Part shown: one piece after another, positions 4,795 to 31,127 of the stretch | Position numbering within the stretch: position 1 is the stretch's first letter | How the letters are laid out: every line of letters starts with the position of its first letter | Position numbers and translations under genes: made by a program | Source of the DNA: a virus | Lineage: Duplodnaviria; Caudoviricetes | Reading direction: 5' to 3' (one strand) | Virus record (IMG/VR): IMGVR_UViG_3300035180_000859 | Location: 1-54,931 of that record | DNA: 54,931 nt | The notes under the pieces: model-generated | The model's database searches: none | The model's input: only the letters and a program-made list of their open reading frames with translations | Told to the model about the DNA's origin: nothing

Positions 4795-4952
4795 ACGTTA
4801 CACAAGTTTTAAAACTCCTCTCTATAAAACTCTACTACTCCTTTATTACACTATATATTTCTTAATCTTAATTTAAAGAGTGTAAAGTGTAATATATGTA
4901 ATAAGTAGGGATAGAAGGCTTGTAGAGCGACTTTTTGATTACACTAATTACG
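4795..4952 (+). repeat. 158-bp AT-rich inverted repeat, left copy (putative origin)
   Basis: Reverse complement of 30970-31127 with 2 mismatches; several TTACAC/GTGTAA units; immediately upstream of the primase-helicase. Confidence 0.95.
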
Positions 4953-4963
4953 CCAAATCCGCG

Positions 4964-4977
4964 GTCTAAAATAGACT
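4964..4977 (+). promoter_or_regulatory. Putative promoter (GTCTAAAATAGACT) for the replication module
   Basis: Matches the TCTAA-NN-TAGA(A/C)T motif. Confidence 0.45.
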
Positions 4978-5010
4978 TCCATCTGTTTAAGCCCTACAGG
5001 ACATGAAGCC

Positions 5011-7419
5011 ATGAAATTGACCTTTTTACAAGCCAGCGTTCCGTTAACCAAGTCGTACACGAAGCTGTCCGGCGGCACCATTGAAAAGTCTTCATACCCC
5101 AACGTATGGGAAGTCAGCTCGATCGATGAAGACATCACCACCCTGAAAGAATTTGAAGCCGCCATCGTCAAACACGCAGCCACCGGGCACTGTTTACTCA
5201 AAGGCAACGTGATGAAACCACTGGTGTCCGAGTCTCGCAAGGGCAGCACGGACAGCAACGCCACAACAAATTGGCTTTGCCTTGACATCGATGGTATCAA
5301 CCCTACCTTCACCACCATCGTGTCACGACCCAACCCAGTCACTGGGCAGATGGAAGAAGTACAGTCCGTGATCAATGTGACCATCGACACCCTCATGGAG
5401 TCACTCGGTCTTAAGGACGTCAGCTACATCCTTCAGTGGTCAGGCTCCATGGGCATCGGGGGCAACACCTTGCGCTGCCACATCTTCATCATGCTGACCA
5501 AAGCTATCAGCGCTCCACTCATCAAACAGTGGCTCATCCAGAAGAACCACGAGGTTGCCATTCTGCGTGAACACCAGGCACTGACAAAAACCGGTAGCTC
5601 GTTGACATGGGGCCTGGACATCACAGCCTGCCAAGCAGATAAGCTGATCTACATTGCACCACCCACACTCAAAGGCATCAAGAACCCACTCGGGCGTACC
5701 CCGCGCATCTCGCTCGTCACCAAAATCCAAGCAACTTATGACCTCACCGGCAAGATCAATTCGACTGATCAGAATCGTGCGCTTACAGACGCCAGGGTGC
5801 TTGAACTACGCGAACGCGACGGACTGCCTAAGCGCAAACTTGTTTACAAACATGTGGGCGGGCATGAAATTATGGCCAAGCCCGGTGAATGCATCGCCAC
5901 AGAGACTAAAGTTGATCGGGGGTTTGTCTACTTCAACCTCAACGGTGGAGATTCCTGGGCCTACTTTCATCCTGAAAACAACCCTGACTACATCTTCAAC
6001 TTTAAGGGTGAACCCGTCTACCTGACCAAGGAACTATTACCTAGCTACTGGGAATCCCTGAACCAGCAAGCCTATCGTGAAGCCTCCAATGGCCTCACCT
6101 ATCTGGCATTCCTGGACAGGGCCACCTCTACCTATTACCGAGGCACTTATGACGCAGCCAATGACCTCCTGGACATCTATCCCGCGAAGAACGAGTCGAT
6201 GGTTAGACAGTTTGCTGACGCCAACGGACTACGTCTCGGCCCCAATATCCCAGAATGGGACATGGAATTCAATCCGCTCAATGGCGTACGCGTCGACATC
6301 CCCAACCGCACCATCAACACCTTCGAGCGTACTGTCTATATGAAGGCACCAGTCAAGAAGGTTACCAAGATTCCACCCATGTGCAACAAAATCATCAGCC
6401 ACATCTTGTCCAACGACACAGGCACCAAGGAGCACTTCATGAACTGGCTGGCTTGTATCGCTCAGAACCTGGACCGCACGCGTACAGCCTGGGTATTTCA
6501 GGGCGTACCTGGAACAGGGAAAGGACTGCTGTTCAACAAGATTCTCCAACCCCTGTTTGGTAAAGACCAGGCAGTCATCAAACGTGCTGGCGAGCTGACT
6601 GAAAAATGGACAGACTTTGTGCAGGGCAAGTTCATCGTCTTCATCGACGAAATTCAAACTTCAGCCCTCAAAGACGAAGCCGGTGTGATCGCCAACATGA
6701 AGAACTTGATCACTGAGCCTACAGCAATGATCCGCATGATGAACCGCAACAGCTTCGCAGTACCCAACTACACAAACTGGATATTCGCCTCCAACAAACC
6801 AGACCCCGTGGCTGTGGACAAAAACGACCGGCGTTTCAACGTGGCACCTTACCAGGGCACCGAGTTCCCACGCCCCACGGATGAAGAGATCGACGCGATC
6901 GAAGGCGAGTTGCAGGCGTTCTATCACTACCTGCTGAACTACAGCGTCGACAAGCTCGTAGCCTCCACACCACTGCAGAGTGATGCACGTAACACACTCA
7001 TTACCCTGAGCCAGAGCACCAGTGAGAGCACCGCCGATGCTGTGCGTGAGGGCAATATGGAGTTCTTCCTGGACCAGCTGCCCAACACCGACGCTTATAA
7101 GCTCGACAACAAGCTGCTGCCTATCGTCGAATCCTACCGCCGCGCACTGTGCGACATCTTGTGCCGCGCCAGGCCAGGTGTACCATGCAACGTGCGCCGA
7201 GACGAGCTGTTTGCCATGTTCAACTTCACAGTGGGTGGCATGTCCCAGAGCCCAGCGACATTCACCCGGTTCTTAGGCCACCGCCAACTGACCATCAAAC
7301 CCGTGGCCATATCCGGTGGCAAAACAGAGCGTGGGCTCGCCACAGTATGGGAGAACGCTGCATCATTCCAAGACATCCTGAAAACACATTTCGCAGACAT
7401 GACAAAGGTGAAATCATGA
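5011..7419 (+). CDS. Primase-polymerase fused to an SF3 helicase (DUF5906/D5-like)
   Basis: N-terminal CLDIDG...RCHIF primase motifs; C-terminal GVPGTGKG Walker A, VFIDE Walker B, FASN motif C and DRRF. Confidence 0.88.
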   Translation: MKLTFLQASVPLTKSYTKLSGGTIEKSSYPNVWEVSSIDEDITTLKEFEAAIVKHAATGHCLLKGNVMKPLVSESRKGSTDSNATTNWLCLDIDGINPTFTTIVSRPNPVTGQMEEVQSVINVTIDTLMESLGLKDVSYILQWSGSMGIGGNTLRCHIFIMLTKAISAPLIKQWLIQKNHEVAILREHQALTKTGSSLTWGLDITACQADKLIYIAPPTLKGIKNPLGRTPRISLVTKIQATYDLTGKINSTDQNRALTDARVLELRERDGLPKRKLVYKHVGGHEIMAKPGECIATETKVDRGFVYFNLNGGDSWAYFHPENNPDYIFNFKGEPVYLTKELLPSYWESLNQQAYREASNGLTYLAFLDRATSTYYRGTYDAANDLLDIYPAKNESMVRQFADANGLRLGPNIPEWDMEFNPLNGVRVDIPNRTINTFERTVYMKAPVKKVTKIPPMCNKIISHILSNDTGTKEHFMNWLACIAQNLDRTRTAWVFQGVPGTGKGLLFNKILQPLFGKDQAVIKRAGELTEKWTDFVQGKFIVFIDEIQTSALKDEAGVIANMKNLITEPTAMIRMMNRNSFAVPNYTNWIFASNKPDPVAVDKNDRRFNVAPYQGTEFPRPTDEEIDAIEGELQAFYHYLLNYSVDKLVASTPLQSDARNTLITLSQSTSESTADAVREGNMEFFLDQLPNTDAYKLDNKLLPIVESYRRALCDILCRARPGVPCNVRRDELFAMFNFTVGGMSQSPATFTRFLGHRQLTIKPVAISGGKTERGLATVWENAASFQDILKTHFADMTKVKS

Positions 7420-7598
7420 AGAGCAGTTATACCGAAGACGAACTGTGCGAATTCAACAAACTGAGAGCGCAAGGCTGTGCGGTCTGCGTATTCCTGCCCT
7501 CAGAGCTTGGTTCAATGTCAGCAGATGACGCCGAAGAAATTATGTGTATGTCAGTCAATGACCGAGTGGAGACTACTGATGAACTGTCCGACCTGTAA
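7416..7598 (+). CDS. Hypothetical protein
   Basis: ATGA overlap with the primase; AAGGTG RBS. Confidence 0.6.
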   Translation: MKSSYTEDELCEFNKLRAQGCAVCVFLPSELGSMSADDAEEIMCMSVNDRVETTDELSDL

Positions 7599-7782
7599 TG
7601 CACCCATGAAGGTCATGATGACGACGCAGCTCTCTTTACAGGTCAACCGAATCAGGCGGTGTGAGAACGGCCACACATTCTCAACATGCGAGTCTTTCGA
7701 CAGCTCTATCGAAGAAGACAAGCGCAGATATAACTCCGGCCGTGGAAACGATTCGACACCAACAGAAGAAAGGCTGACATGA
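7579..7782 (+). CDS. Zinc-ribbon protein (NrdR N-terminus-like)
   Basis: MNCPTC...RIRRCENGHTFSTCE. Confidence 0.7.
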   Translation: MNCPTCNAPMKVMMTTQLSLQVNRIRRCENGHTFSTCESFDSSIEEDKRRYNSGRGNDSTPTEERLT

Positions 7783-7958
7783 GCACAAAGCGCATTACCG
7801 TAAATGTGAGCCAGGACGTTGACCTGATCCGGGAGCGTCTGGTGGCCGACACGGGGATACGCATGAGCTACATCCAGATTTTCAATTACCTGATCCACTT
7901 CTACATAAAGCACGCCGCGGAACCTCGGACGCGATGGGCCTCAGGAGAAACAAAATGA
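7779..7958 (+). CDS. 59-aa putative ribbon-helix-helix DNA-binding protein
   Basis: Manual translation MSTKRITVNVSQDVDLIRERLVADTGIRMSYIQIFNYLIHFY...; ATGA-coupled at both ends. Confidence 0.6.
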   Translation: MSTKRITVNVSQDVDLIRERLVADTGIRMSYIQIFNYLIHFYIKHAAEPRTRWASGETK

Positions 7959-8263
7959 AAGCATTACACACGCCGGGACCGTGGTTTGTTGGAAACAAAT
8001 TCACTATAGCTACATGCAGCAATAATGATGATCAAACCTTCGGCATGTTGATTCCTATTGCAGATGTTTATGGCGAAAATCGGGTGGAGGATGCCCGTCT
8101 TATAGCAGCCGCACCTGATTTGCTTTCCTCTGCCGTTGAGTTTCTTGCAGCCTCTGAGTTCAGCGCGCCGATCGTCGATCATGATGAAGCAATGCCCCGC
8201 TACAAAGAGGCAGACCGTGCGCTAAGAGAAGCCATAGCCAGAGCAAAAGGAGTCACAAAATGA
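7955..8263 (+). CDS. Phage hypothetical protein (HTPGPW...ARLIAAAPDLL type)
   Basis: Common phage accessory motif; AGGAG RBS. Confidence 0.75.
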   Translation: MKALHTPGPWFVGNKFTIATCSNNDDQTFGMLIPIADVYGENRVEDARLIAAAPDLLSSAVEFLAASEFSAPIVDHDEAMPRYKEADRALREAIARAKGVTK

Positions 8264-8424
8264 ATAACTGGGACGATAGATACTTGAACAGGAAGATGCC
8301 CGATGCGGCTGTCGAAAACACAGCGGTTGAGCAGGTTGATAGCCTCTTTAAATGGCTTGGGCGTGTCGTTGGCTTGGTCATAATCTTAGCCGCTGTAGGC
8401 TATGTCATCGGCGGGCTGTTATGA
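8260..8424 (+). CDS. 54-aa single-TM protein
   Basis: AAGGAG RBS; ATGA coupling; hydrophobic C-terminus. Confidence 0.6.
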   Translation: MNNWDDRYLNRKMPDAAVENTAVEQVDSLFKWLGRVVGLVIILAAVGYVIGGLL

Positions 8425-8609
8425 GCTTGAGCAACGACACCGCCCGGTGTATGGGCCACTTCGCCGCAGCGGAATACAAATCTGTGCTGCCCCCAATATG
8501 CATCGATTGCAAAAGACGCACAGCAAAAAGGCTTGAACCATATCAATGGTGGATGCGCGGCGAGGTTGTGGACGACAAGTGCAATCACAAGATCAAGGAT
8601 GAATCATGA
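8421..8609 (+). CDS. Small Cys-rich protein
   Basis: [10 protein letters not shown]...CIDCKRR...C; ATGA coupling. Confidence 0.6.
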
Positions 8610-9184
8610 CAAAAGCTATTCAAATCAAACACCGCTGGACTGGTGACGTCCTATTTGAGGGTAACAGCGGCACAACCATAAGGGCTACGCTCGAAAAGGC
8701 GACAGCAGCAAAAACCTACTTGCGCGACGCCGACCTGAGTGGTGCCGACCTGAGTGGTGCCGACCTGAGTGGTGCTAACTTACGCGGTGCTGACCTGCGC
8801 GGTGCTGACCTGCGCGGTGCCGACCTGCGTGGTGCCAACCTGCGCGACGTCGACCTAAGTGGTGCCAACCTGCGCGGAGCCGACCTACGCGGTGCCGACT
8901 TGTGGGGTAGAAAGCTCGTCGGCAAGCGCCCGTTTTTAACCATCGGCCCCATTGGCTCGCGCTGCGATTACATGCAAGCGTGGATCACCGACACAGGCGT
9001 GATGGTGCAAGCCGGGTGCTTTTTTGACACTCGTGACAAGTTTGAGTTGGCGCTTAATGCAGAGCATGGCGATAGCGATAGCGACCACGGCCAGGAATAC
9101 CGCGCTGCGCTGGCGCTGATTGACAAGCACGCCGAACTGTGGACACCTGCTGTTGCGCCGCAAGATGCTGAAGAAGATATTTAA
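8606..9184 (+). CDS. Pentapeptide repeat protein
   Basis: About 12 tandem A(D/N)L(S/R)G repeats followed by a typical phage C-terminal domain (IGPIGSR...AGCF). Confidence 0.9.
8719..8905 (+). repeat. 15-bp tandem repeats encoding the pentapeptides
   Basis: GCCGACCTGAGTGGT / GCTGACCTGCGCGGT units. Confidence 0.85.
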
Positions 9185-9205
9185 CACTCAACGTATGGAG
9201 ACATC

Positions 9206-9628
9206 ATGACAAAAGAACTTGTAGTTGAGCTACGTTTTGCAGCAGACGATTACAGCCTATTTGATAAGAGCATAGGTAGAGATGCCGCCGACACAATCGA
9301 ACGACTGGGGAATGAACTACTTGCAGCCACGATCCGCATTGACAACGACGCCCGGACGATTGAGAGCCTGACACAAGAGCGTGACGCTGCAATCGCTGAG
9401 TCACTAGAGCAGGCACGCCTGCTTGATATAAACAGCGAACGTGGGGCTGCTTTGCTTAGTAGGGCAGACGATATGCAAGCCCGAATCGACGTACTGATGG
9501 CAGGATTTTCAAAAGCCACAGATGAACTGTTCGCTCTGTCGCAGGACGATGGCAAGGTCGAACGCGCACTAGACAGAGCTAATGCAGAAATTGCAAGACT
9601 CAAAGATTCATTAGGGGAAACCAAATGA
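9206..9628 (+). CDS. Coiled-coil hypothetical protein
   Basis: GGAG RBS; heptad repeats. Confidence 0.7.
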   Translation: MTKELVVELRFAADDYSLFDKSIGRDAADTIERLGNELLAATIRIDNDARTIESLTQERDAAIAESLEQARLLDINSERGAALLSRADDMQARIDVLMAGFSKATDELFALSQDDGKVERALDRANAEIARLKDSLGETK

Positions 9629-9663
9629 TTAAGCCCTTAGCTGGGCTGAATCTGGAGTGAATT

Positions 9664-9871
9664 TTGAGTAAAGAAACTGTAGAAAACTGACGCACGAAAT
9701 CTACAAACTGTGTGTCGGGCAGGATGTTGCAGCAGTCGTAGGCGCAGGGCTGAATATCGTTTTACCGCGCTTGATTCTGTTGATTCGCAAGAAATAAGGG
9801 CCCACTTCGCGCGCTCTTTGCGCGACATGGCTACACAGATTGAAAGCCATATAAAAGAAAGTGTGCACTGA
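9664..9871 (+). pseudogene. Small ORF broken by two apparent single-base deletions in homopolymers
   Basis: Adding one A (GAAAAC) and one T (GTTTTA) gives a continuous protein LSKETVEKLTHEIYKLCVGQDVAAVVGAGLNIVFTALDSVDSQEIRAHF...ESVH; GGAG upstream. Confidence 0.5.
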
Positions 9872-9872
9872 C

Positions 9873-10199
9873 ATGGGCGAAAGAGCTGCATTTGAAAAGT
9901 GGTACATGAGCGGTGATCTGAATATCAAATCCATTCACAGCTTTGACTCAACGTATTACACGTCCCCAACGACACGAATTGCATGGGTAGCTTGGCAAGC
10001 CTCCCGCAGAGATGCGCTCGAAGAATCTGCTGACGCGCAGCAACATACATGCACATGGACGCTTGACGATGATGAGTTAGGCACTTGGGCATCATCATGC
10101 GGTGAGCTTTGGAGCTTTATCGACGGTGGGCCGGATGAAAACCGGATGTCGTATTGCCATCGTTGCGGTGGCAAGGTCGTCAAAGGGGAATCAGAATGA
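9873..10199 (+). CDS. Hypothetical protein with C-terminal Zn-binding motif
   Basis: ERAAFEKWY...AWQASR module plus CTW...SCG...YCHRCGGK. Confidence 0.7.
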   Translation: MGERAAFEKWYMSGDLNIKSIHSFDSTYYTSPTTRIAWVAWQASRRDALEESADAQQHTCTWTLDDDELGTWASSCGELWSFIDGGPDENRMSYCHRCGGKVVKGESE

Positions 10200-10843
10200 C
10201 ATACATAGGATTCCTCTACGAGGAATTACGCAGAGCTACTGATGGTGGCAACGAATCGATGACGCATGAGGAAGCGCTGAAGCAAATCAAATACTAGCGG
10301 AATGCCATGAATACGATACCTTACGAATGGATGGCGTCAAGCGTACCTACTGCAACGCGTGATGCACTGGCAGAGGACACCCTACAACAGTATACGGCGG
10401 CATACCAGGGGATAAAGCAGCCTGACCTAGTCGTGGAAGCGCAGACGACGATAGACACCTTCATTACCGACCAAGGGCCTCTTGGGCTTACGAGTGAGCA
10501 AATGAACATGCTGGTATTTGGGGAAGCGAAGTCACCAATGGACGCAACACCCCAGCCAGCTATCCCTGCGGGGTGGCAACCGATTGAGACGGCACCGGAC
10601 GACTTTGTGCTTGTACACGAAGATGGCGCGATGCGTGCGCTTGTACACACAAACGGCAAGTGGAAAAATCCCAGCTACCCGGCGCTCGTTTCGCTTGCTT
10701 GGGGTGATGTACTGGTAGGCGATGATGCCAATCACGTGCTTGCGCCGCTTGGCTACAGGCTTGAGTTGCGAGACGGATGCTGTGAAAACCCTACAGAATG
10801 GATGCCCCTCCCAGAAGTACCAAATCCTGAAAGTAAATCATGA
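10196..10843 (+). CDS. DUF551-like accessory protein; in-frame TAG at 10295 (open from 10307)
   Basis: WQPIETAP...PTEWMPLPEVP motif; the coupled ATG at 10196 is in frame with 10307 across one TAG. Confidence 0.7.
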
Positions 10844-11247
10844 GCCGAATTAAAGCAATGCAACAGGCGCTTGATGCGCTTTTGTCACATGTAAGCGCGT
10901 ACCCACACATGGATAAGGGTTACATGGTTGATGCGCGTGAAGCCTTGCGTGAAGCACTGACAGAGGACACCCTACAGCAGCATGCGACGTCATACCAGGA
11001 GATGGAGCAGTCTGACCCAACAGACGAACGAACCAAGTTGATCAGTCGGTTGCGTCTAGGTGCGTCAATATTACGTGACCGCGGGATTAATGAAGACTTT
11101 GCGGCTATTGCCGACGACGCGGCCGACATGCTAGGGGCTGATGCTGCTTGGTATGCAAAGGGCGACAGACTTATGAATGCCAGCTTCAGCCCCTTGTTCA
11201 GTGCAGGGCAATGGTGGGCAGATCGCCCTTGGGGAAAGAAAACATGA
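10840..11247 (+). CDS. Hypothetical protein
   Basis: ATGA coupling; shares a 71-bp module with the upstream gene. Confidence 0.7.
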   Translation: MSRIKAMQQALDALLSHVSAYPHMDKGYMVDAREALREALTEDTLQQHATSYQEMEQSDPTDERTKLISRLRLGASILRDRGINEDFAAIADDAADMLGADAAWYAKGDRLMNASFSPLFSAGQWWADRPWGKKT

Positions 11248-11387
11248 CGCCTGAAAACAAACGCGCCAGAGAAGCATATCGCACCGTCGCTAGATGTGAG
11301 GTCTGCCGCTGGCCGCTCAGTGCACAAAACTGCTTGCATTGCCGCATTGGACATAGACAGAATCAATTGACTCTCTTCGTTTTTTAA
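11244..11387 (+). CDS. 47-aa zinc finger with near-terminal QLTLF motif
   Basis: CEVC...CLHC...NQLTLFVF; ATGA coupling. Confidence 0.6.
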   Translation: MTPENKRAREAYRTVARCEVCRWPLSAQNCLHCRIGHRQNQLTLFVF

Positions 11388-11397
11388 TCTGACATCT

Positions 11398-11529
11398 ATG
11401 AACAACCTAACCACTCACGCCGCTGAACTTTTCCCTAATCACCCAGCCTATCAGACAGCTTGGCTCCGAATGATTAAGCTCCTCGGCCCCAAGTGGCTGC
11501 TGGCTACCCCCGTCAGGAGAACAGCATGA
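11398..11529 (+). CDS. 43-aa hypothetical protein
   Basis: Manual translation MNNLTTHAAELFPNHPAYQTAWLRMIKLLGPKWLLATPVRRTA. Confidence 0.55.
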   Translation: MNNLTTHAAELFPNHPAYQTAWLRMIKLLGPKWLLATPVRRTA

Positions 11530-11873
11530 CAGGCGAAGAATGGAAAGAGAAATACTACCCAGTCGAGGCGAGTGACTGCCCTAAAGACGAAGCCATCGCT
11601 CACAGCATCCGCAAGTGGGAAGGCGTTGCCTGGGCTGTCCAAAACCATATAGCTGTACCAATCCGAGTTGACGCGTCGACCTGTACGCTGTGCATCTACT
11701 TCTACGGCACCAGTGCCGAAGGTGAAAGTCGCTGCCTCAGGTGCCCGCTGGCCATCAGCTTGGGATACAGATGTGATGAAGGTACCGACAACGAAGAATC
11801 CCCTTGGGGAGCTTACTACAACAACAAAGACCCGTTCCCTATGCTCAAGGCCCTGCACGCTATCAAACCATGA
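11526..11873 (+). CDS. Cys-rich hypothetical protein
   Basis: AGGAG RBS; HSIRKWEG...CTLC...CLRCPL. Confidence 0.7.
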   Translation: MTGEEWKEKYYPVEASDCPKDEAIAHSIRKWEGVAWAVQNHIAVPIRVDASTCTLCIYFYGTSAEGESRCLRCPLAISLGYRCDEGTDNEESPWGAYYNNKDPFPMLKALHAIKP

Positions 11874-12040
11874 AACCTACCACAACATTTGGACGCGAGC
11901 AGCCAACGCGCTACCGTCCTCCCCTTCCCATCCCTGCTGGCGAGCGCAGCTACTACCTCCCCGGCGACGGCGACGTGAAGGCTATACGTCGTCCTGGATC
12001 AGACCACTCCCACATTAAGTCACGAGGGCAACTATGCTGA
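11870..12040 (+). CDS. Small hypothetical protein
   Basis: ATGA coupling; RRPGSDHSHIKSRG. Confidence 0.55.
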   Translation: MKPTTTFGREQPTRYRPPLPIPAGERSYYLPGDGDVKAIRRPGSDHSHIKSRGQLC

Positions 12041-12156
12041 GCAATGAAGTCGAACTCTCCGGTCTGGGTTACATCTGGGCCGAAACACAAAAGATTCTCA
12101 ACGCCAAATGCGACGCTGAAGAATAGCCCAACCACAACCTTTGGAGCTTATAAGCC

Positions 12157-13432: not shown

Positions 13433-13488
13433 ACAGCACCTGACTGTGTGAAATCCTGAGACGGCTTCACACAGTCAGGCTCGTTCAC
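13429..13488. other. Long intergenic hairpin
   Basis: Perfect 14-bp stem CCTGACTGTGTGAA/TTCACACAGTCAGG plus an outer GTGAAC/GTTCAC stem. Confidence 0.7.
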
Positions 13489-15063: not shown

Positions 15064-15068
15064 ACATC

Positions 15069-16015: not shown

Positions 16016-17103
16016 TTAATCAAGGCGTCGCAGACCAGCTCACTCGTGCCCGCACACAACTGATTCTGGATCATTCGTTCTTTGGCCAGCTCGCTCTGCG
16101 CCTGCCGCTGGTGGAAGATACCAGTACCAAAACACTATCGGTCAACGGCAAGCGCATCCGCTACAACCCGACGTTCGTTGAGACCTTGAGCGGCCCGCTG
16201 ACCAAAGCCGCCATCGCCCACGAAGTGATGCACTGCGTCTTTGACCACATCGGCCGGCGCCAGGACCGCAACCCGCGCAAGTGGAACCAGGCAGGTGACT
16301 ATGTCATCAACCTGGCGCTACAGGACTCAGGCTTCGAGATCGGTAAGTCCTGGCTGCTCAACACCGCGTTCGCCGGCATGGGCTCTGATGAGGTCTACAA
16401 CCTGCTGCCTGAACCTGACGACGAAGACGGTAAAGACCCACTCGATGAGTGTCAGGACGGTGACCCCAGCGACATTGAAGTCAATGCCACCGACTGGAAG
16501 ATCGCTACCATTCAGGCAGCCAACCAGGCCCGCGCCGAGGGCAAGTTGCCTGCCAGTCTGAGCCGCTTTATCGAAGAGCTGACCGAGACTAAGATCGATT
16601 GGCGTGCCATGCTACGCCGCTTCATCACTGAAACATCAAAGAATGACTACTCGTGGCAACGGCCTAACCGACACTTCATCGAACAAGGCTTCTTTCTACC
16701 TACCTTGTACAGCGAATCCATGGGCGAAATTGTCGTGGCCATCGATACCTCAGGTTCGATTAGTCAAGAGATGCTCAACACATTCGGCGGAGAGATCAAA
16801 GCCATCGTTCAGAGCAGTCGACCAAGCAAAACTCATGTCATATATTGTGACAGTCAGGTCAACCACGTTGATGAGTTTGGCCCCAATGATGACCTCAGCT
16901 TCGACATGCACGGCGGAGGCGGTACAGCGTTCAAGCCGGTGTTCGACTACGTGGCAGAGTGGGGCATCAAGCCGGTGTGTCTTGTCTACTTGACAGACCT
17001 GTATGGAGACGCCACATTCTCTCCGCCCGACTACCCGGTCATGTGGGGGTGCACTACCCATGAAGTTGCGCCGTGGGGTGAGACAGTGAGGATTGAGGAA
17101 TGA
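16012..17103 (+). CDS. DUF2201-type protein: HExxH metallopeptidase-like domain plus vWA domain
   Basis: AHEVMHC...WNQAGDYVIN; MIDAS DTSGS, GGGGT and LTD. Confidence 0.9.
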   Translation: MINQGVADQLTRARTQLILDHSFFGQLALRLPLVEDTSTKTLSVNGKRIRYNPTFVETLSGPLTKAAIAHEVMHCVFDHIGRRQDRNPRKWNQAGDYVINLALQDSGFEIGKSWLLNTAFAGMGSDEVYNLLPEPDDEDGKDPLDECQDGDPSDIEVNATDWKIATIQAANQARAEGKLPASLSRFIEELTETKIDWRAMLRRFITETSKNDYSWQRPNRHFIEQGFFLPTLYSESMGEIVVAIDTSGSISQEMLNTFGGEIKAIVQSSRPSKTHVIYCDSQVNHVDEFGPNDDLSFDMHGGGGTAFKPVFDYVAEWGIKPVCLVYLTDLYGDATFSPPDYPVMWGCTTHEVAPWGETVRIEE

Positions 17104-18731: not shown

Positions 18732-18754
18732 GTTCTAAATACGAAAGCACTACG

Positions 18755-19462: not shown

Positions 19463-19590
19463 ATGATCGTCACACGCAAAGGGTAGATAGCGTCGTTTCT
19501 GATCTGGCGGTGGGTGCGTCCTAAGCCGAATCAGCTGAGTAAAGTGGTCTTACCCGTCTCGCCCCACCTACTCGGACCTCCCCACCCTGC

Positions 19591-19627
19591 CCCGACCAGG
19601 TAACGCACAAGTCGGGATTTTTTTTTT
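19591..19627 (+). terminator. Terminator-like direct repeat, copy 1
   Basis: CCCGAC-CAGGTAACGCACAA-GTCGGG-A-T10. Confidence 0.65.
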
Positions 19628-19729: not shown

Positions 19730-19733
19730 GAAC

Positions 19734-19767
19734 CTCGACCAGATAACGCACAAGTCGGGATTTTTTT
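19734..19767 (+). terminator. Terminator-like direct repeat, copy 2
   Basis: CTCGAC-CAGATAACGCACAA-GTCGGG-A-T7. Confidence 0.6.
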
Positions 19768-23805: not shown

Positions 23806-24046
23806 GCCCACTGGGCGTTCACCCGCTCTCGGGGTCATCGATGAATGGATAACAGGCAAAGACTGTATGTTCAACACTTACCCCTCCTACGGTGATTATG
23901 AGATAGTCAAGCTTGGCCGCAAAGAATACGGTTTTCGGCCATGCAACAAACAGCTGGGTGGCGTCGTCGTCAGCTACAAATGCAGCCACCTCGAAGCCCA
24001 GCGCCGATTCAAGCTGATGCTGGTCACCAGAAGGCTGATGAAGTAA
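23786..24046 (+). CDS. Hypothetical protein ending ...LMLVTRRLMK
   Basis: AAGGAGG RBS inside the 3' end of the polymerase gene. Confidence 0.7.
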   Translation: MSITVSKPTGRSPALGVIDEWITGKDCMFNTYPSYGDYEIVKLGRKEYGFRPCNKQLGGVVVSYKCSHLEAQRRFKLMLVTRRLMK

Positions 24047-24047
24047 A

Positions 24048-24110
24048 GGGGTCCGGCGACGACGGCAAAAGCGAGTTGAGCGTCCTTGCTCATTTCGTCT
24101 GCCGGGCCCC
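24048..24110. other. Branched intergenic stem-loop
   Basis: GGGGTCCGGC/GCCGGGCCCC, GACGA/TCGTC and inner TGAGC/GCTCA stems. Confidence 0.55.
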
Positions 24111-24154
24111 GCCCTGTGTCCAATTTGCCCACAAAGTGTGTGCAAATGTCAAAC

Positions 24155-24168
24155 ATCTAAGTTAGAAT
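24155..24168 (+). promoter_or_regulatory. Putative promoter (ATCTAAGTTAGAAT)
   Basis: Matches 13 of 14 bases of the minus-strand motif at 48771-48784. Confidence 0.55.
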
Positions 24169-24191
24169 TCACCTACCCCAAAGGAGCCAAC

Positions 24192-24641
24192 ATGACAGAA
24201 GCCCTCGAGAAACCCGCCCGTACCAAAGCTGCCAAAGCTGCAGTCATCGCCAAAGTTACCGCCCGCCTGGACCCTCCGTCCCTTGGTGCTATGACCGACA
24301 AAATGTGGGCCTTGCGTGAGCAGAAGCGTGGCCTAGACGCCCAAGTCAAGGCCGTCGAGGTCAGCATCAAGGAGCTTGAAGGTACCTTGTTTACGTTGCT
24401 CGACGCCCAGGATACCCGCAAGGCTGAGGGTAAGAAAGCCTCGGTCTCGATTGGCGAATCAGTAGTTGGCGCTGTTGAAAACTGGGATGCCACCTGGGCC
24501 TACATCGCCAAAAACAAATTCTTTCACCTAGTCCAGAAGCGTCTGAGCGACCCCGCTCTACGCGAACTGTGGGCGCTCGGCAAAGTCGTGCCAGGCGTTC
24601 AACCCTTCACAAAACGCACTCTCTCTGTTCGTTCACTTTAA
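24192..24641 (+). CDS. Phage replication-module coiled-coil protein
   Basis: AAGGAG RBS; VENWDATWAYI...LVQKRLS...VPGV. Confidence 0.8.
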   Translation: MTEALEKPARTKAAKAAVIAKVTARLDPPSLGAMTDKMWALREQKRGLDAQVKAVEVSIKELEGTLFTLLDAQDTRKAEGKKASVSIGESVVGAVENWDATWAYIAKNKFFHLVQKRLSDPALRELWALGKVVPGVQPFTKRTLSVRSL

Positions 24642-24667
24642 CGTCTAACATCTAAGAAAGACAAACC

Positions 24668-25423
24668 ATGGCTACTAAAAAACCTGTTACCTCCACCGCT
24701 GTTGCCGTCAAGAAGCCTAGTTCAGCCAACATCGTTTCAATCAAGGAAGCGCTGCAAGCTCAAGCAGCCGGAATGTCCGAGCGCGTGGCACCTGCTGGTG
24801 GCTCTGCCATTCGTGTCACTCAGGATAAACAGTTCCTGTTACCCGATGGCACCAAGACTCCAGGCCCTCTGGAACTGGTAATCGTGGACTTTACATCGAA
24901 GAACTCGTTCTACGAAGGCGCGTATGACCCTAAGAGCATCGTGCCTCCGGCTTGCTTCGCTATTGGCCAGAATCCGCTCAAGCTGGTGCCCTCAGCCAAC
25001 AGCCCACTGATTCAGTCAACTGAATGCAACGCCTGCCCGAATAATCAGTTTGGCTCCAATGGCAATGGCAAGGCTTGCAAGAACAGCCGCGTGCTGGCTG
25101 TGTTACCGCCTGATGCTGACGAGAACACCCCGTTGTGGACTTTGTCTACCAGCGCTACGGCCAACAAGGGTTTTGACGGTTTCGTATCCAGTGTGGCTCG
25201 CGTCTTTCAGATGCCACCAATTGGTGTGGTTGCCACAGTATCGTTCGATCCGAATGAAACCTATGCCAAGTTAGTGTTCTCTGATCCCCAGCCCAACCCC
25301 AACATTGGCGTTCACTTCGCCCGTCAGGAAGAAGCCAAGGCAATGTTGACTGTTGAACCCGATGTCAGCCAGTTCGTCAAAGCTGCGCCTGTCGGTCGTG
25401 GCAAGGCGCCGGCTCGCCGATAG
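24668..25423 (+). CDS. Putative ssDNA-binding or annealing protein with Cys cluster
   Basis: PPACFA...CNACPNNQFGS...GKACKN; located in the replication module. Function inferred. Confidence 0.6.
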   Translation: MATKKPVTSTAVAVKKPSSANIVSIKEALQAQAAGMSERVAPAGGSAIRVTQDKQFLLPDGTKTPGPLELVIVDFTSKNSFYEGAYDPKSIVPPACFAIGQNPLKLVPSANSPLIQSTECNACPNNQFGSNGNGKACKNSRVLAVLPPDADENTPLWTLSTSATANKGFDGFVSSVARVFQMPPIGVVATVSFDPNETYAKLVFSDPQPNPNIGVHFARQEEAKAMLTVEPDVSQFVKAAPVGRGKAPARR

Positions 25424-25430
25424 TTTGCAA

Positions 25431-25450
25431 TATCCCCCATTTGGGGGATA
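25431..25450. other. Intergenic hairpin
   Basis: TATCCCCC-ATTT-GGGGGATA after the stop codon. Confidence 0.5.
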
Positions 25451-25475
25451 GTTGAATATCTAAACACTATCTATC

Positions 25476-25685
25476 ATGCCCATCCGCAAATGGTTCATAA
25501 GCGAAGCGCTGGTTTCCTACCGGAGGCTTCTCACCGTTGTTGATGAGCTGACGGAAGAAGAAGTAGCCGCCTGTCTCGATCTCGAAGCAGGCACTCAACG
25601 CCGTCAGTCGATTACTGACAAACTCATCAAACGAGCAATCACGCTCTTCACAAACCGCCTACTGGAGAAATATCACCATGGCTAA
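25476..25685 (+). CDS. Hypothetical protein
   Basis: Fills the gap between genes; overlaps the next start. Confidence 0.65.
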   Translation: MPIRKWFISEALVSYRRLLTVVDELTEEEVAACLDLEAGTQRRQSITDKLIKRAITLFTNRLLEKYHHG

Positions 25686-26073
25686 AGCACCTAAAACCAT
25701 CTCTGCTGCTGACAAAAAAGTTCAGCTTGCCAACCTCAAGGCTTTGCTCAAAGGCCAGGCTGTTGCAGCTAAGGCTGCCACTGCAGACCAAAAAGCGGCT
25801 GCTGCCGCCTTGGCGCTCGCCAAGAAAGCTGCAGACGCTGAAGTAAAAGAAGCTATGAAAGCAGCTGACGTGAAGCGCAAGGCTGCAGATGCTGCCATTG
25901 CTATGGCCCAAAAGGACTACGCAACAGCCGTGCTCAAAGCGGAAAAATCTGCCACTGCTATCGCCAAGGGGACTGAAAAGTTGACCACCCAGATGGCTGC
26001 TTTGGAGGCTATGCCTGTTGCTGCCCCGATCAAAGCTGTCAAAGCCCCAAAACCTGAACTCGAGGCTGCGTAA
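25678..26073 (+). CDS. Ala/Lys-rich protein (histone-like composition)
   Basis: GGAG RBS; very high A and K content. Confidence 0.75.
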   Translation: MAKAPKTISAADKKVQLANLKALLKGQAVAAKAATADQKAAAAALALAKKAADAEVKEAMKAADVKRKAADAAIAMAQKDYATAVLKAEKSATAIAKGTEKLTTQMAALEAMPVAAPIKAVKAPKPELEAA

Positions 26074-26127
26074 GCCAGTTGCCCTGTCCTTTTGGGTAGG
26101 GCACATAAACCTAACGGCGAGAAACCT

Positions 26128-26682
26128 ATGAAGCATGTGATGATCGACACAGAGACCTTGGCCACGACTGCTGATGCTTGCATCCTGAGTATTGGGGCAG
26201 TTAAGTTTGATCTTGACTCCGAAGCCGTGGACGACAACGGCTTCTACGCCAGTATCTCGGTGGACTCGAACCTCGAGTTAAAGCGGCGCATCAGCGAGGA
26301 CACCCTCATCTGGTGGATGGCGCAGGGGCCTGCCGCGCAGGGTGTATTTCATGAGTCGAAGCAGACCCTGCGGACTGTACTCGAAGAGTTTGCTGACTGG
26401 TTGGCAGCCTCGGACATCCACGTGTGGAGTAATGGGGCTGACTTCGACTTGCCTATACTGGCTCACGCGTTTGTTCAGTGCGGTATGGATGTGCCTTGGA
26501 AGTTTTGGAATAGCCACTGTTTCAGGACCTACAAGAACCTGCCCGGCGCCAAAGCTATTCGCTCACCGGTAACCGGTGTCAAGCATAATGCCTTGTCAGA
26601 TGCCCACCAGCAGGTGGTCACCTTGCAGGCAATCCATAAGGCATTGTTCGTAGGCAAGCCCCACGCGATGGTGAAAACATGA
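26128..26682 (+). CDS. DEDD 3'-5' exonuclease (DUF5051-like)
   Basis: MIDTETL...IGAV...WSNGADFD...HNALSDA. Confidence 0.85.
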   Translation: MKHVMIDTETLATTADACILSIGAVKFDLDSEAVDDNGFYASISVDSNLELKRRISEDTLIWWMAQGPAAQGVFHESKQTLRTVLEEFADWLAASDIHVWSNGADFDLPILAHAFVQCGMDVPWKFWNSHCFRTYKNLPGAKAIRSPVTGVKHNALSDAHQQVVTLQAIHKALFVGKPHAMVKT

Positions 26683-26898
26683 AGCCGGCCCAGGCCGACG
26701 ACAACCGCCGCAAACGCCGAGCCCTGGTAAAGGCGCTTGGCAAACGACAGTTCAAAAAACTTTACAGAAAGGCTCAAGTATGAGCGACTACGATGAAAAA
26801 CTATTCGCATTGGTTCTGGCAGCTGTGGCCTCCGGCCTAGCATCCCCCGAAGCAATCACCAAGGCTACCCGGCTTATGGAACTCTTAGGACACAAAAA

Positions 26899-27300
26899 AT
26901 GACACAAACCATCGACCAAACCCTCGCCGAACGCGGCGCCCGCTACGGTGACTTTGAGGGACATGCCCAGATAACCCAGAGCATCAAAGTGGCGATGTAT
27001 GACAGCGACAGCTGGGATGCTCTGGATGACGACATCAAAGAATGTCTGGAGATGATTGCTCACAAGATCGGCCGAGTGCTGAACGGTGATCCCATGTATC
27101 CAGACAACTTCACAGACATCTGCGGGTATTCCAGACTGGTGGAAAAACGACTGTTGGCTCGAGAACAGATGATCAAAAGCGAAGCTGACAACGAACAGTC
27201 TGCACAACAAGCGGCGAACTTCGGGGAAGTTTCGGCAGCGCTCGGGGTGCTCCTACGGGCTGGTGTTATCAGGCAGACAGACGACGATGGCGACGCCTGA
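26899..27300 (+). CDS. DUF6378-like protein
   Basis: TLAERGARYGDF...HKIGRVLNGDP...DICGYSRL. Confidence 0.75.
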   Translation: MTQTIDQTLAERGARYGDFEGHAQITQSIKVAMYDSDSWDALDDDIKECLEMIAHKIGRVLNGDPMYPDNFTDICGYSRLVEKRLLAREQMIKSEADNEQSAQQAANFGEVSAALGVLLRAGVIRQTDDDGDA

Positions 27301-27715
27301 AAACACGTTTATTCAGGGGGTCCACAGGTATCTGCCTGTGGACCTCTACCGAATGAAAAACCACAACCAGTTTAACGCCGGCATTGCCGACGTCTGGTAC
27401 AGCGGCAACGCTGCTGATCTCTGGGTTGAATACAAACACATCACTATTCCAAAACGTCCTGACACTCTGATCACTATAAACCTTTCAGAGCTTCAGAAAA
27501 ACTGGCTTCGCAGCCGACACGCTGAAGGCCGAAACGTCGGAGTAATTATTGGATGCAAAGAAGGTGGCGTCTACTTCGAGGGTGTGTCTTGGGATTCGAC
27601 TTTTACCGCCGAGCAGTTCCGTAAATCAATTTCGACACGTGCTGATCTGGCCGCGTTAATAACCCTACATTGCAATCTATGCCAGCCCTACTCACAGTCG
27701 AAGAAGATGCGATAG
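27287..27715 (+). CDS. VRR-NUC/PD-(D/E)XK-like nuclease (putative resolvase)
   Basis: E...GIAD...WVEYK...LSELQKNWL. Confidence 0.75.
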   Translation: MATPENTFIQGVHRYLPVDLYRMKNHNQFNAGIADVWYSGNAADLWVEYKHITIPKRPDTLITINLSELQKNWLRSRHAEGRNVGVIIGCKEGGVYFEGVSWDSTFTAEQFRKSISTRADLAALITLHCNLCQPYSQSKKMR

Positions 27716-27897
27716 CCGCGGCCCAGGGCTGGAGTCTATGCCATGTTTATGACCTCGCCACTGAAAAGTGGCGAGTTCAGGTCTACGCACTGCCCAACTG
27801 TGAGCAAGCAGGTGCGTTCGTTGTCAACCAAGCGCGGATGGGCAACGCGATTTGTATAAAAGCATTACGGCTCATGCAAGCGAGCCATCAAGGATAA
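27679..27897 (+). CDS. Hypothetical protein
   Basis: AAAQGW motif; overlaps the nuclease 3' end. Confidence 0.55.
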   Translation: MPALLTVEEDAIAAAQGWSLCHVYDLATEKWRVQVYALPNCEQAGAFVVNQARMGNAICIKALRLMQASHQG

Positions 27898-27899
27898 AT

Positions 27900-28562
27900 A
27901 TGAGACTGAATAACCTGGAAGGTCGGGTCATCGGACGACTATTGGTGCAGGACAGAGCGGCCGACTACATCCAGCCAAATGGCAGAAAGCGCGTTCAGTG
28001 GAATTGTATCTGTATATGCGGAGGGCAGGCGACCGTCGAAGCCGGGAACCTATCCACTGGCCATACCCAGTCTTGCGGGTGCCTTGTTGCGGATATGTGT
28101 GCAGCTACTGGTTCTAAATTCGCAACCCATAGACAAACAAAGACTCGCGAATGATACGCATGGGTGAGCGCGCAGGGTAGGTGCAATAACCCAAATACTT
28201 CATCGTACAAGTACTACGGAGCCCGAGGGGTAACTTTCTGTAAACGTTGGACGAAGTCGTTTGAGAACTTTTATTCTGATATGGGTGCGTGTGCCCCGGG
28301 GCTTTCGCTTGAGCGTAAGGATGTTAACCGCGGATATGAGCCCTCCAATTGCAGATGGGCGTCAACCAAGGATCAGGCCAGAAATAAGCGCAGCACCATT
28401 CGCGTTACCTACCAAGGCATAGAGACATCCCTTGCCGCGTTAGCCGAATCCATGGGGCTCGAGTACCGAATTACTTATGAACGCTACCAGCGTCAGGGCT
28501 GGAGCATTGAAAAGACTGTCAACACACCAACGAGGCCACGAAAATGTTCCGTCCCACATTAG
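27900..28562 (+). pseudogene. HNH-type homing endonuclease interrupted by an in-frame TGA (28152-28154)
   Basis: WNCICICG...SCGC...HRQTKTRE*YAW...RC.NP...YGARG...C.RW...F..DMG...SLERKD.N.GY...NCRWA...Q.RN; both halves are in one frame. Confidence 0.8.
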
Positions 28563-29440
28563 CGGTTAATGCGAATCTTGAAAAAATTGATTGGAGCCGC
28601 GGCATGTATGCCAGCCCCAAACTCGACGGCATCCGTTGCAGCATCGTGGACGGCAAGGCTTTAAGCCGTACGCTTAAGCCGATTCCGAACAAGCATATCT
28701 ACGAACAGCTCAGCAACCATAAGTTGACGGGAATGGATGGTGAGTTGATTGTGGGCAGCCCAACCAGCAAAACTTGCTACACCGAGTCTGTGTCTAATGT
28801 CATGGCGTTTGACAAGGTGCCGGCCTACACGTACTACGTGTTTGACCTCCACACGCATGCACGGCCGTTCCGTGAACGCCGACAGGTCATGCTCGACTGT
28901 CTGGGTAATGGTCAATGGGGCAGGTACCCTCAAATCTGCCTACTCGAACAGAACCTCTTGGCCAACGAAGACGACATGCTGACCTACGAAGCAGCCAAGG
29001 TTGAAGAAGGTTACGAGGGCATCATCCTGCGCAGCCCCGACGCCCCCTACAAGCATGGGCGCAGCACGGTAAACGAAGGTTATTTGCTCAAGCTAAAAAG
29101 ATTTGAGGACAGCGAGGCCGAGATCATTGGCTTCGAGGAAGAGATGTTCAACGGGAACGAGGCGCAAACAAATGAACTGGGCAGAACAAAACGCAGCACA
29201 GCGCAGGCGGGTCTCGTGGGCAAAAACACATTGGGCGCGTTTCTTGTCAGAGACGTCCACACCGGAGTCGAGTTCTCAATTGGGACTGGGCTTACGGCCC
29301 TCGAGCGAGGAATCTTCTGGGCCCATCAAGATGAATATGTTGGCAAGCTCGTGCGCTATAAATTCTTCCCGGTTGGTGTCGTTAACAAACCTAGACACCC
29401 AGTCTTCACCGGTTTCAGGGACTTGAGAGACCTGTCATGA
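28544..29440 (+). CDS. lig: ATP-dependent DNA ligase
   Basis: SPKLDGIR (motif I), DGEL, VFD, EGIIL, LLKLK and an OB-fold tail GTG...RHPVF. Confidence 0.92.
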   Translation: MFRPTLAVNANLEKIDWSRGMYASPKLDGIRCSIVDGKALSRTLKPIPNKHIYEQLSNHKLTGMDGELIVGSPTSKTCYTESVSNVMAFDKVPAYTYYVFDLHTHARPFRERRQVMLDCLGNGQWGRYPQICLLEQNLLANEDDMLTYEAAKVEEGYEGIILRSPDAPYKHGRSTVNEGYLLKLKRFEDSEAEIIGFEEEMFNGNEAQTNELGRTKRSTAQAGLVGKNTLGAFLVRDVHTGVEFSIGTGLTALERGIFWAHQDEYVGKLVRYKFFPVGVVNKPRHPVFTGFRDLRDLS

Positions 29441-29489
29441 CGTGCACTCACTACACCACATCATGGATGGAACAAACAAGGAAAACCCA

Positions 29490-29837
29490 ATGAACTTTGA
29501 CCAAGACGACTTCGCCATCCAGCTGGTGTACCTGGTGGCGGGCGCTGAACCTCGGATTGACATTCAACACATCACGAACCGCCTCATGGGCTCCGAGAGT
29601 GATCACCCGCTACACGCTGGCGGCGGGCACATCGGAATGGTGGAGGACCTCATCTCATACGCCAAGCAGGTGTCAGCTTATCTGCGCACCAGGCCCGATG
29701 GTCAGGAGTTTCCCGGGGTGTTCGAGTACGAAGTCACCGAGCCCCTTGGGGCTTGGTTGGCTGACAACTGGGAGACCGTGGGCCTATATTCTTTCAACAC
29801 CGAACTAGAGGCGCGGGCTGCTGCGTTTTTTGCCTAA
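29490..29837 (+). CDS. Hypothetical protein
   Basis: AAGGA RBS; FPGVFEYEVTEPLGAWL. Confidence 0.7.
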   Translation: MNFDQDDFAIQLVYLVAGAEPRIDIQHITNRLMGSESDHPLHAGGGHIGMVEDLISYAKQVSAYLRTRPDGQEFPGVFEYEVTEPLGAWLADNWETVGLYSFNTELEARAAAFFA

Positions 29838-30034
29838 TGACCCACAAACTTACCGCCGATGGTGCAGCTGTTGTCGCTCCCGACATTAACTGGCTACCCA
29901 TCGACAAAAACACACCGATTGGCGTCCGCATGATGCTGATTGAAAAATCTCAGGGTGTAACCTACGTACGCGCCCACTTCTCGGACGATGGCTTTGACCA
30001 TTGGTTTCCGCTCCCCACTTTTAAGAAAGACTGA
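29837..30034 (+). CDS. Small DUF551-like protein
   Basis: WLPID...HWFPLPTF. Confidence 0.65.
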   Translation: MTHKLTADGAAVVAPDINWLPIDKNTPIGVRMMLIEKSQGVTYVRAHFSDDGFDHWFPLPTFKKD

Positions 30035-30035
30035 T

Positions 30036-30338
30036 ATGAGCTATTCTGAAGTTGAAATGAAAGTCCTCCAGTGGGGCGAAGCTCGGGGCATCGTCAAGAA
30101 TGCCAAACCCCTAGGTCAGGCGATCAAGACTCTTGAAGAGACTACCGAGCTGTTGGACGCCATCAACCGTGGCCACCGGGACGACACAGTTGATGCTGTC
30201 GGTGACGTAGTAGTCACGCTCATCATGGTGTGCGCCACCCTTGACCTCGACCTGGTGGCGTGTCTACACTATGCCTATGACCAGATCAAAGATCGCAAGG
30301 GCTACCTGACGCCTCAGGGCGTGTTCGTCAAGCAATGA
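30036..30338 (+). CDS. mazG: MazG-like nucleotide pyrophosphohydrolase
   Basis: WGEARGI...KTLEETTEL...DAVGD...AYDQIKDRKG...FVK. Confidence 0.85.
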   Translation: MSYSEVEMKVLQWGEARGIVKNAKPLGQAIKTLEETTELLDAINRGHRDDTVDAVGDVVVTLIMVCATLDLDLVACLHYAYDQIKDRKGYLTPQGVFVKQ

Positions 30339-30431
30339 TCCCGGAGCCGCTGCCCAGGGGGCAGACGCTAAAAAGGCTCAGCAAATATTTTTCCACCAAC
30401 GGGCGCTTAGCCCACAACCTTGAGAGCAGCT

Positions 30432-30629
30432 ATGCAAATTTATAAGACATTCGCTACCAACACAGAAACAGGTGCCGTGGCCATCAGTTGGCAGGGCAGC
30501 CAGACAGAAGCCAGCAAGGCGCGATCTGGTGCCAAGGCCGTCGGGCGTAAGGCCGAGAGCCAAACTGTTAACATCCCGACCGCTAAAGGCCCTCTGATTG
30601 AGTGGCTCAACGAGAACGTCTCTGCATGA
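30432..30629 (+). CDS. Hypothetical protein
   Basis: GAGAG RBS; IPTAKGPLIEWLN. Confidence 0.6.
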   Translation: MQIYKTFATNTETGAVAISWQGSQTEASKARSGAKAVGRKAESQTVNIPTAKGPLIEWLNENVSA

Positions 30630-30969
30630 ATTTTCAGCCACTGTTCACCACCTCGCGTGTGGTAGTGGCTGTGTACCGCACGCTGTCGACCACCGTCTTG
30701 TTGTATTACCTGATGAAGCGCATGAAGAATGGCCGAGCGCCACGCGATCATCACCACGGCAGGTTCGGGACGGAGTAACACGTCGGGCCTTCTTAAGCGG
30801 AGGAGGCCCGACATGTTTTTCGATGACCGTAGGTGGACGCTCCACCCCTAGCAGGCTGCTTTACTGCCTGTGCGAATAGCCCCGAAATACACCTGTTCTC
30901 AGCAAATATTCGCCTTCATCCGCACAGCACGTCAAACAATCTACCTGCTGCGAAAATGCTGATTTTGTA

Positions 30970-31127
30970 CGTAATTAGTGTAATCAAAAAGTTGCTCTAC
31001 AAGCCTTCTATCCCTACTTATTACATATATTACACTTTACACTCTTTAAATTAAGATTAAGAAATATATAGTGTAATAAAGGAGTAGTAGAGTTTTATAG
31101 AGAGGAGTTTTGAAACTTGTGTAACGT
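30970..31127 (-). repeat. 158-bp AT-rich inverted repeat, right copy
   Basis: Reverse complement of 4795-4952 (156/158); sits where the replication and virion modules converge. Confidence 0.95.

Follow-up and report, generated by a model that had tools for sequence, protein, structure and literature searches.

Why would a phage genome carry the same AT-rich sequence twice, once at each border of its replication module? This question is raised by the IMG/VR virus record IMGVR_UViG_3300035180_000859 (Duplodnaviria; Caudoviricetes), a linear record of 54,931 bp, estimated to be 84% complete, which was analysed whole and is referred to below as the window. The left copy of the repeat (P; 4792-4952, plus strand) lies upstream of a primase-helicase gene, and the right copy (V; 30970-31130, minus strand), its reverse complement, lies past the stop of a giant virion gene. 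A first-pass annotation, made from the sequence, had taken the two copies for either paired opposed origins or the ends of an invertible segment giving two genome isomers. The reading favoured here, to which we give about an even chance, is that P and V are two copies of one cis-acting, origin-type element: the primase-helicase would bind P, where replication would start, and V would be either another origin or a helper site acting at a distance. The inverted orientation of the pair in the window genome is incidental to it.

A repeat pair at two conserved sites

P and V are recovered both by a repeat search and by blastn as reverse complements over 161 nt with 3 mismatches (98.1% identity). 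Over the 158 nt initially noticed, the identity is 98.7%, i.e., the 2 mismatches counted in the first-pass annotation. The arms are 26017 nt apart and the blastn E-values are 2.2e-81 and 1.8e-77; because the next-best inverted pairs found by the repeat search in the window are only 25-35 nt long with 71-84% identity, the match is far beyond chance. The borders of the repeat are sharp, and blastn detects no third copy in the window. An exact 35-mer of the repeat has 0 matches in IMG/VR and 0 in the metagenome collection, and the left copy shows no direct DNA similarity to 50,697 phage records. An 18-mer gave 15 matches in the metagenome collection, which turned out to be due to chance, so that these exact-word scans yielded no other contig of this phage.

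Both copies stand out by their composition, with a GC content of 29% for P and 28% for V versus 56% for the whole genome. The two lowest-GC 80-nt windows of the record fall in P and V (the lowest, at 0.20, starts at 4825), and the open reading frames (ORFs) that overlap them are short and AT-driven only. P ends 58 nt before the ATG of the primase-helicase gene (5011). At the other end of the module, an intrinsic-terminator-like hairpin called by the terminator scan (30782-30812, plus strand) closes the plus-strand replication genes; it is followed by a unique 157-nt spacer of ordinary GC content (30813-30969), then by V, whose end is separated by 6 nt from the stop codon of the 2303-aa virion gene. 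P and V mark the early/middle and middle/late borders, respectively, and their initial description as non-coding, very AT-rich sequences sitting at module borders holds in each of its parts.

A search with the primase-helicase yielded 41 related IMG/VR loci, and 15 contigs were taken whole and compared with themselves by BLAST. Five of these (G007, G009, G010, G014, and G015) are without the end of the giant gene and hence not scorable for the pair. All 11 contigs that hold both places, i.e., the window and 10 relatives, have a repeat pair at both sites; such self-comparison had been proposed in the first-pass annotation as a way to look for an equivalent pair of different sequence in related genomes, and it revealed one. 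Because the relatives hold the pair at the same two places, an assembly artefact is an unlikely source of it. The pair is inverted in six of the 11 contigs: the window (161 nt, 98% identity), G005 (162 nt, 91-92%), G001 (172 nt, 85%), G011 (with scores identical to those of G001), G003 (139-147 nt, 77-78%), and G006 (195 nt, 70%). It is direct in five: G012 (111 nt, 86%), G004 (124-137 nt, 79-81%), G008 (135 nt, 72%), G013 (with scores identical to those of G008), and G002 (94 nt, 68%, E 6e-5), the last of these having a weak copy that is cut by the contig end. G001 and G011 may be the same phage, as may G008 and G013, and merging these likely duplicates gives a direct pair in 4 of 9. The polarity of P towards the primase is constant in all eight genomes compared, and V is the copy that flips. 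The separation between P and V ranges from 26 to 38 kb among the genomes.

The AT-richness of the two places is conserved as well. In a scan covering 0.6-3 kb upstream of the primase per locus, the most AT-rich 100 nt (16-32% GC) ends 27-195 nt before the primase start at every one of the 41 loci. When the 80-nt windows of a genome are ordered from the lowest GC content upwards, P and V take the first two places in seven of nine genomes, places 2 and 4 in G005, and places 1 and 6 in G008. The closest named relatives are the Pseudomonas phages KPP25 and phiR18 (Kochitakasuvirus), which have 40% primase identity and the same layout; in KPP25, a repeated element is found directly past the giant gene stop, and the equivalents of the two elements are at about 26.4-26.8 kb and 58.25-58.53 kb.

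The elements share a general layout, in which a very AT-rich core separates a pyrimidine-rich arm from a purine-rich one. Short repeats (iterons), two or three of them in tandem, are found in the purine-rich arm, and opposite-orientation copies of the motif in the other arm and in the outer flanks; across relatives, these AT-rich iteron clusters are 120-190 nt long. The iteron of the window is AGTGTAA, and the eight copies present in these 55 kb are all inside P and V, four in each. Each element has five TTACAC-type sites, including the four exact AGTGTAA/TTACACT 7-mers. In P, read on the plus strand, two tandem iterons (AGTGTAA AGTGTAA, 4879-4892) occupy the primase-proximal arm, while opposite-orientation TTACACT iterons are found in the left arm (4846-4852) and in the outer right flank (4939-4945), and a degenerate GTTACAC in the outer left flank (4797-4803, with TTACAC at 4798). 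Between the opposed iterons lies a 26-nt AT core with 3 G/C (4853-4878), which, as read from the sequence, is a candidate unwinding spot. In V, whose iterons are assigned to the minus strand, the tandem pair is at 31030-31043 (TTACACT TTACACT on the plus strand), with an outer iteron at 30977-30983 and an inner one at 31070-31076 (both AGTGTAA on the plus strand).

Other lineages have private iterons, with all copies again within the pair: GAATGTA in G003 (5/5), AATGTAA in G012 (5/5), GTATAAG in G006 (4/4), and AGAGTAA in G001 (4/4). The iteron copies within one element change together between lineages. When pairs have diverged, the tandem-iteron block is best conserved and the pyrimidine-rich spacer least. 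Clustered binding sites of a sequence-specific protein leave such a signature when the specificity of that protein drifts between lineages.

Within a genome, P and V are 73-98% identical, versus at most 71% between genomes, and this is true in all eight genomes compared. The first-pass annotation had taken the near-identity in the window to suggest homogenisation or selection, and the copies are indeed kept alike. Such a pattern indicates concerted evolution of P and V; identity being higher within than between genomes, the two copies exchange sequence, co-evolve with one binder, or both.

The possibility of an RNA gene was considered and rejected, with 0 Rfam families and 0 tRNAs predicted by ARAGORN in the window. 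Folding of the element is no better than that of shuffled sequences (z -0.36).

A candidate origin and the alternatives

Iterons together with an AT-rich region are the usual make-up of an origin, according to reviews quoted in two papers (PMC2777425, PMC7145576), and both P and V consist of clustered copies of a short motif, in tandem and inverted, with an adjoining AT-rich stretch suited to unwinding. An initiator/helicase gene is found alongside P but not alongside V, which abuts the virion gene. The following account of which protein binds the elements, and of their acting as origins, is inferred. The iterons would be bound by the C-terminal domain of a phage protein, most probably the product of the primase-helicase gene that starts 58 nt after P. 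Once bound, this protein would melt the AT-rich core, and replication would start at P. V would provide a further origin or assist from a distance, as in the ori plus crr arrangement of phage P4, and the likeness of P and V would be maintained by gene conversion and by joint selection to fit one binding protein.

The primase-helicase gene (5011-7419, plus strand) encodes an 802-aa protein with matches to phage primase families, and its product is the candidate iteron-binding initiator. It has a superfamily 3 (SF3) helicase core of the DUF5906/VapE type, a feature of P4-like alpha initiators, with matches to DUF5906 (3.3e-18), to VapE-like proteins (3e-6), and to the helicase region of the NrS-1 enzyme. 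Its N-terminal part matches phage 'primase' PHROGs only. The last 200 aa, modelled from an alignment of 24 relatives with a predicted local distance difference test score (pLDDT) of 77.6, are predicted to form a helix-strand-helix-helix-hairpin arrangement (helices 100-117, 128-138, and 146-155; strands 124-127, 161-164, and 170-176). The best structural match of this model is the tail of the NrS-1 primase-polymerase (618-718; Z 6.6, root-mean-square deviation 3.2 Å, 92 residues aligned), while winged-helix proteins (RFX, PadR, MCM8 WH, cullin WHB) reach only Z 3.0-3.5. A Foldseek search with the model gives an E of 0.025 at best. These fold matches are no more than suggestive. The proteins encoded just upstream of P in five genomes have no Pfam family above cut-off and thus offer no alternative binder.

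A more elaborate proposal, possible rather than probable, is that of a two-locus origin system in a clade of podophage-like viruses not described before. The primase-helicase would recognise the private iterons at both borders and either bridge them, with the 26-kb module looped out, or use them one after the other, P early for theta replication and V late for a second mode. As the binding domain evolves, gene conversion would keep both sites fitted to it, and where the copies are inverted, this exchange would now and then flip the module, isomers arising as a by-product.

Several observations weigh against an origin-type role. V adjoins no initiator gene, and a second copy 26 kb away has an unexplained role. 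In KPP25, the early-side copy is found in an intergenic stretch of the early region, 12 kb ahead of the primase and not beside it, and Aeromonas phage phiA008, with 27% primase identity, has no pair in its first 50 kb. GC skew in the window has no turning point at P or V, and AT skew tracks the coding strand, so that skew yields no origin signal. Finally, a regulated promoter would account equally well for an AT-rich patch with protein sites just before an operon's first gene, and the fixed polarity of P towards the primase is what is expected of a promoter-linked element.

These last two points lead to the main rival, which is possible rather than probable, namely that the iterons are operators through which a regulator of the phage sets, at P, the timing of the replication (middle) operon. 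V would then be a boundary, a roadblock, or an antisense promoter at the convergent junction, separating late from middle transcription. P does lie directly before the first gene of the module at 41 of 41 loci, a conserved -10-like box (TAAAAT/TAGAAT) is found between P and the ATG, and co-directional genes follow V in G004 and KPP25. However, V has no gene downstream on either side in the window, G001, G003, and G005, so that in most genomes it has none to serve, and the orientation of V flips between lineages. A sigma-70-like scan gives one weak site per copy, at the level of shuffled sequences, and the terminator scan none inside either copy. In addition, none of the other intergenic regions contains the iteron 7-mers, and no regulator has been identified.

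A different cis role of the bound protein or of the AT-rich DNA itself, such as stepwise DNA-entry pause signals, sites for a host nucleoid protein with a preference for AT-rich DNA, or packaging-related sites, is unlikely. It would agree with the position of the elements at the early/middle and middle/late borders and with their being the AT-richest DNA in GC-rich genomes. However, lineage-specific iterons indicate a specific, co-evolving binder and not a general AT-binding host protein, and no terminase-linked position was seen.

The invertible segment, in which recombination between the inverted copies would flip the 26-kb replication module and produce two isomers or an amplification switch like that of the 2-micron plasmid, is very unlikely. 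The 161 nt of 98% identity in inverted orientation are ample substrate for general recombination, the module itself carries a promoter-like box inside the bracket, and concerted evolution is a sign that the copies do exchange sequence. However, a dedicated recombinase is missing: the window has 0 matches to serine (PF00239) and 0 to tyrosine (PF00589) recombinases, in agreement with the first-pass annotation, which had recognised none, and no resolvase was found in five complete relatives. Inverted repeats are present at the segment ends of the window, but their orientation is not kept in relatives, and exchange between direct copies would delete the module instead of inverting it. P/V identity is as low as 70-79% in other genomes, and contigs pass through both copies rather than break at them. 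A conserved invertible switch is thus not supported by the sequences at hand, because the pair is inverted in six contigs and direct in five, because module order and orientation are constant in 11 of 11 contigs and in KPP25, and because a flipped junction, with the end of the giant gene upstream of the primase, occurs in 0 of 41 assemblies. Where the copies are inverted, general recombination may plausibly flip the module on rare occasions, in view of 161 nt of nearly identical sequence. Inversion as the purpose of the pair is not supported, whereas the idea of paired opposed origins survives in part: the anatomy is origin-like, with iterons, an AT-rich core, and a primase-helicase neighbour, but 'opposed' is too specific, as the orientation of V varies.

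Site-specific recombinases do occur in the group. A tyrosine recombinase is encoded 2-3.5 kb from V in seven relatives (G002, G004, G005, G006, G007, G009, and G015); it is a lysogeny integrase, and some of the relatives are temperate. G015 (L093 6971-12569) is a true provirus, at the end of which stands a host tRNA-Val(GAC) with a relA/spoT-type gene of the host next to it, and the 3' part of this tRNA recurs in free genomes as the core of the phage attachment site (attP) in G004 (11569-11620), G006 (16443-16491), and G007 (1928-1987). The integrase thus has its own attP, the core of which is 2.2-2.8 kb from V in the two cases measured (G004 and G006). The repeat pair is kept in the integrase-free lineages (the window, G001, G003, G008, and G012), and the stretch where relatives carry the integrase is fully present in the window, despite the incompleteness of the record. 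P and V were also considered as attP sites themselves, and this was rejected in view of the lack of an integrase in the window and of the distance between V and the tRNA-Val-like core in relatives.

Finally, the sharp borders and near identity in the window genome might point to a chance occurrence of two copies, through a small mobile element or a duplication in the assembly. This is extremely improbable in view of the orthologous positions in 11 of 11 contigs from many samples, of sequences that diverge along with the genomes, and of the lack of any further copy in the window, IMG/VR, or the metagenome collection.

Surrounding genes and other features

In the window, the genes are on the plus strand from the contig start to ~30.8 kb; from 31,137 up to the contig end, virion genes occupy the minus strand. 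The genes bracketed by P and V form a replication and nucleotide-metabolism module, with the primase-helicase, an AAA ATPase, an HNH endonuclease, exonucleases, a SNF2 helicase, a family A polymerase (PolA), an ATP-dependent ligase, and MazG. On the early side of P, a hairpin with a 9-bp stem (4736-4763, plus strand) follows a 357-aa early gene; it was read by eye, is the 'early terminator' of the first-pass annotation, and was not called by the terminator scan. Between P and the primase-helicase gene, outside the repeat, GTCTAAAATAGAC (4964-4976, plus strand) forms a small hairpin with a -10-like TAAAAT box and is unique in the window; in relatives, similar CTAAAAT/CTTAGAAT boxes also precede the primase gene. 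Beyond V, the 2303-aa giant virion structural protein gene (31137-38048, minus strand) matches phrog_30152 (E 4.8e-140), a match that covers only the last ~800 residues. The protein is without a Pfam family and has 0 matches to solved structures by sequence; its translation contains a HESLH (HExxH-type) motif in the C-terminal third.

Other repeats were observed in the window. In the early region, a 30-nt motif with a small hairpin (CAGCC...GGCTG) is present in three copies of 83-100% identity (1445-1474, 2007-2036, and 3320-3349), which could be early promoters, terminators, or processing sites. Inside the replication module, two copies of a hairpin with a GC stem and seven T behind it (94% identity; 19590-19624 and 19733-19767) are found just ahead of the SNF2 helicase gene; they are 143 nt apart and look like tandem terminators or an attenuator. 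The gene at 8606-9184 is made of 15-nt periodic repeats and encodes a pentapeptide-repeat protein, possibly one that mimics DNA; a protein of this kind is annotated in KPP25. In addition, a 71-nt direct repeat of 85% identity (10357-10427 and 10947-11017), located in the adjacent ORFs 10307-10843 and 10840-11247, suggests a tandem gene duplication.

Further features were seen in relatives. In KPP25, three tandem 49-nt repeats ending in a T-run (L004 4619-4834) lie beside palindromes TGTTACGAAATT...AAATTTCGTAACA that recur after the giant gene, and the GTAA core there resembles the iterons of the window's clade. The KPP25 record NC_024123.1, annotated as circular, has the same 426 bp at both ends (1-426 and 63688-64113, 99.8% identity), inside the giant virion gene, which is probably an untrimmed assembly overlap. 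In G002, the P element has a run of 13 C in place of the pyrimidine-rich arm (~44,860-44,880) and the contig starts inside the V element (1-110); both oddities look like problems in assembling the repeat. In G001, the ORFs for helicase and DNA polymerase (38478-41768 and 34763-38245) encode ~1100 aa, versus 472 and 721 aa in the window, and the primase match spans ~3.2 kb at loci L013, L035, and L036, instead of 2.4 kb. Inteins or other insertions in these replication genes are possible.

Comparison with known replication systems

To our knowledge, the replication origins of most lytic phages are unknown. Phage P4 is a case of the same iteron being present at two separate loci, ori and crr, of one replicon, with ~4.5 kb between them in a genome of 11.6 kb. 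The window resembles P4 both in its two-locus iterons and in the combination of primase and SF3 helicase in one multifunctional protein, a class of protein that in P4 acts as the initiator recognising the origin. In contrast to P4, the two loci are here 26-38 kb apart and flank the whole module. Likewise, the primase of the P4 alpha protein is of the DnaG type, whereas the N-terminal part of the window protein has its matches among phage 'primase' PHROGs. Excerpts on the alpha protein describe a primase, an SF3 helicase, and a C-terminal winged helix (PMC2777425).

The anatomy of each P/V element also matches the pri-rep origins of phage-inducible chromosomal islands (PICIs) and Staphylococcus aureus pathogenicity islands (SaPIs), in which two iteron sets flank an AT-rich region beside a primase/helicase gene (PMC6092414). 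These origins are single and downstream of rep, whereas two copies are found here, one of them far from any initiator gene. The NrS-1 primase-polymerase is the closest solved relative of the C-terminal part of the window primase-helicase. Excerpts from its description report that removal of the tail weakens DNA binding and that the enzyme has an 8-nt recognition sequence present twice in the genome, once per strand, which is possibly an origin (PMC7102993). The NrS-1 sites are single 8-mers near the genome centre, in contrast to the AT-rich iteron clusters at module borders described here.

Large segments flanked by inverted repeats are known from the yeast 2-micron FRT sites and from Gin/Cin-type systems, to which the window bears this likeness. 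Those systems encode a dedicated recombinase, and both isomers occur. In contrast, the window is without a recombinase, relatives have direct copies, and a single arrangement is assembled.

The use of more than one origin has precedents. Phage T7 has primary and secondary AT-rich origins. Phage ICP1 has early and late origins according to an excerpt, i.e., lytic phages can use two origins at different times (PMC7145576). The two ICP1 origins are not described in that excerpt as copies of one sequence, whereas P and V are homologous and evolve in concert. The literature covered on KPP25, phiR18, and Kochitakasuvirus, to which the original KPP25 paper (Virus Res 2014) does not belong, makes no mention of repeats, origins, or termini, and the titles and abstract openings of 15 of 19 papers on iterons, primase-helicases, and phage origins contain nothing on this phage group. 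Iteron origins and multi-origin phages are known, while the literature searched contains no case of two homologous elements that evolve in concert at the borders of the replication module throughout a mostly uncultured clade.

A long inverted repeat in a phage contig need not imply an invertible segment. The comparative signature, with elements at the same two places, private iterons that differ between lineages, and concerted evolution, yields a candidate origin together with a candidate binding protein, both cheap to test. This candidate origin extends to cultured relatives that are used in phage therapy.

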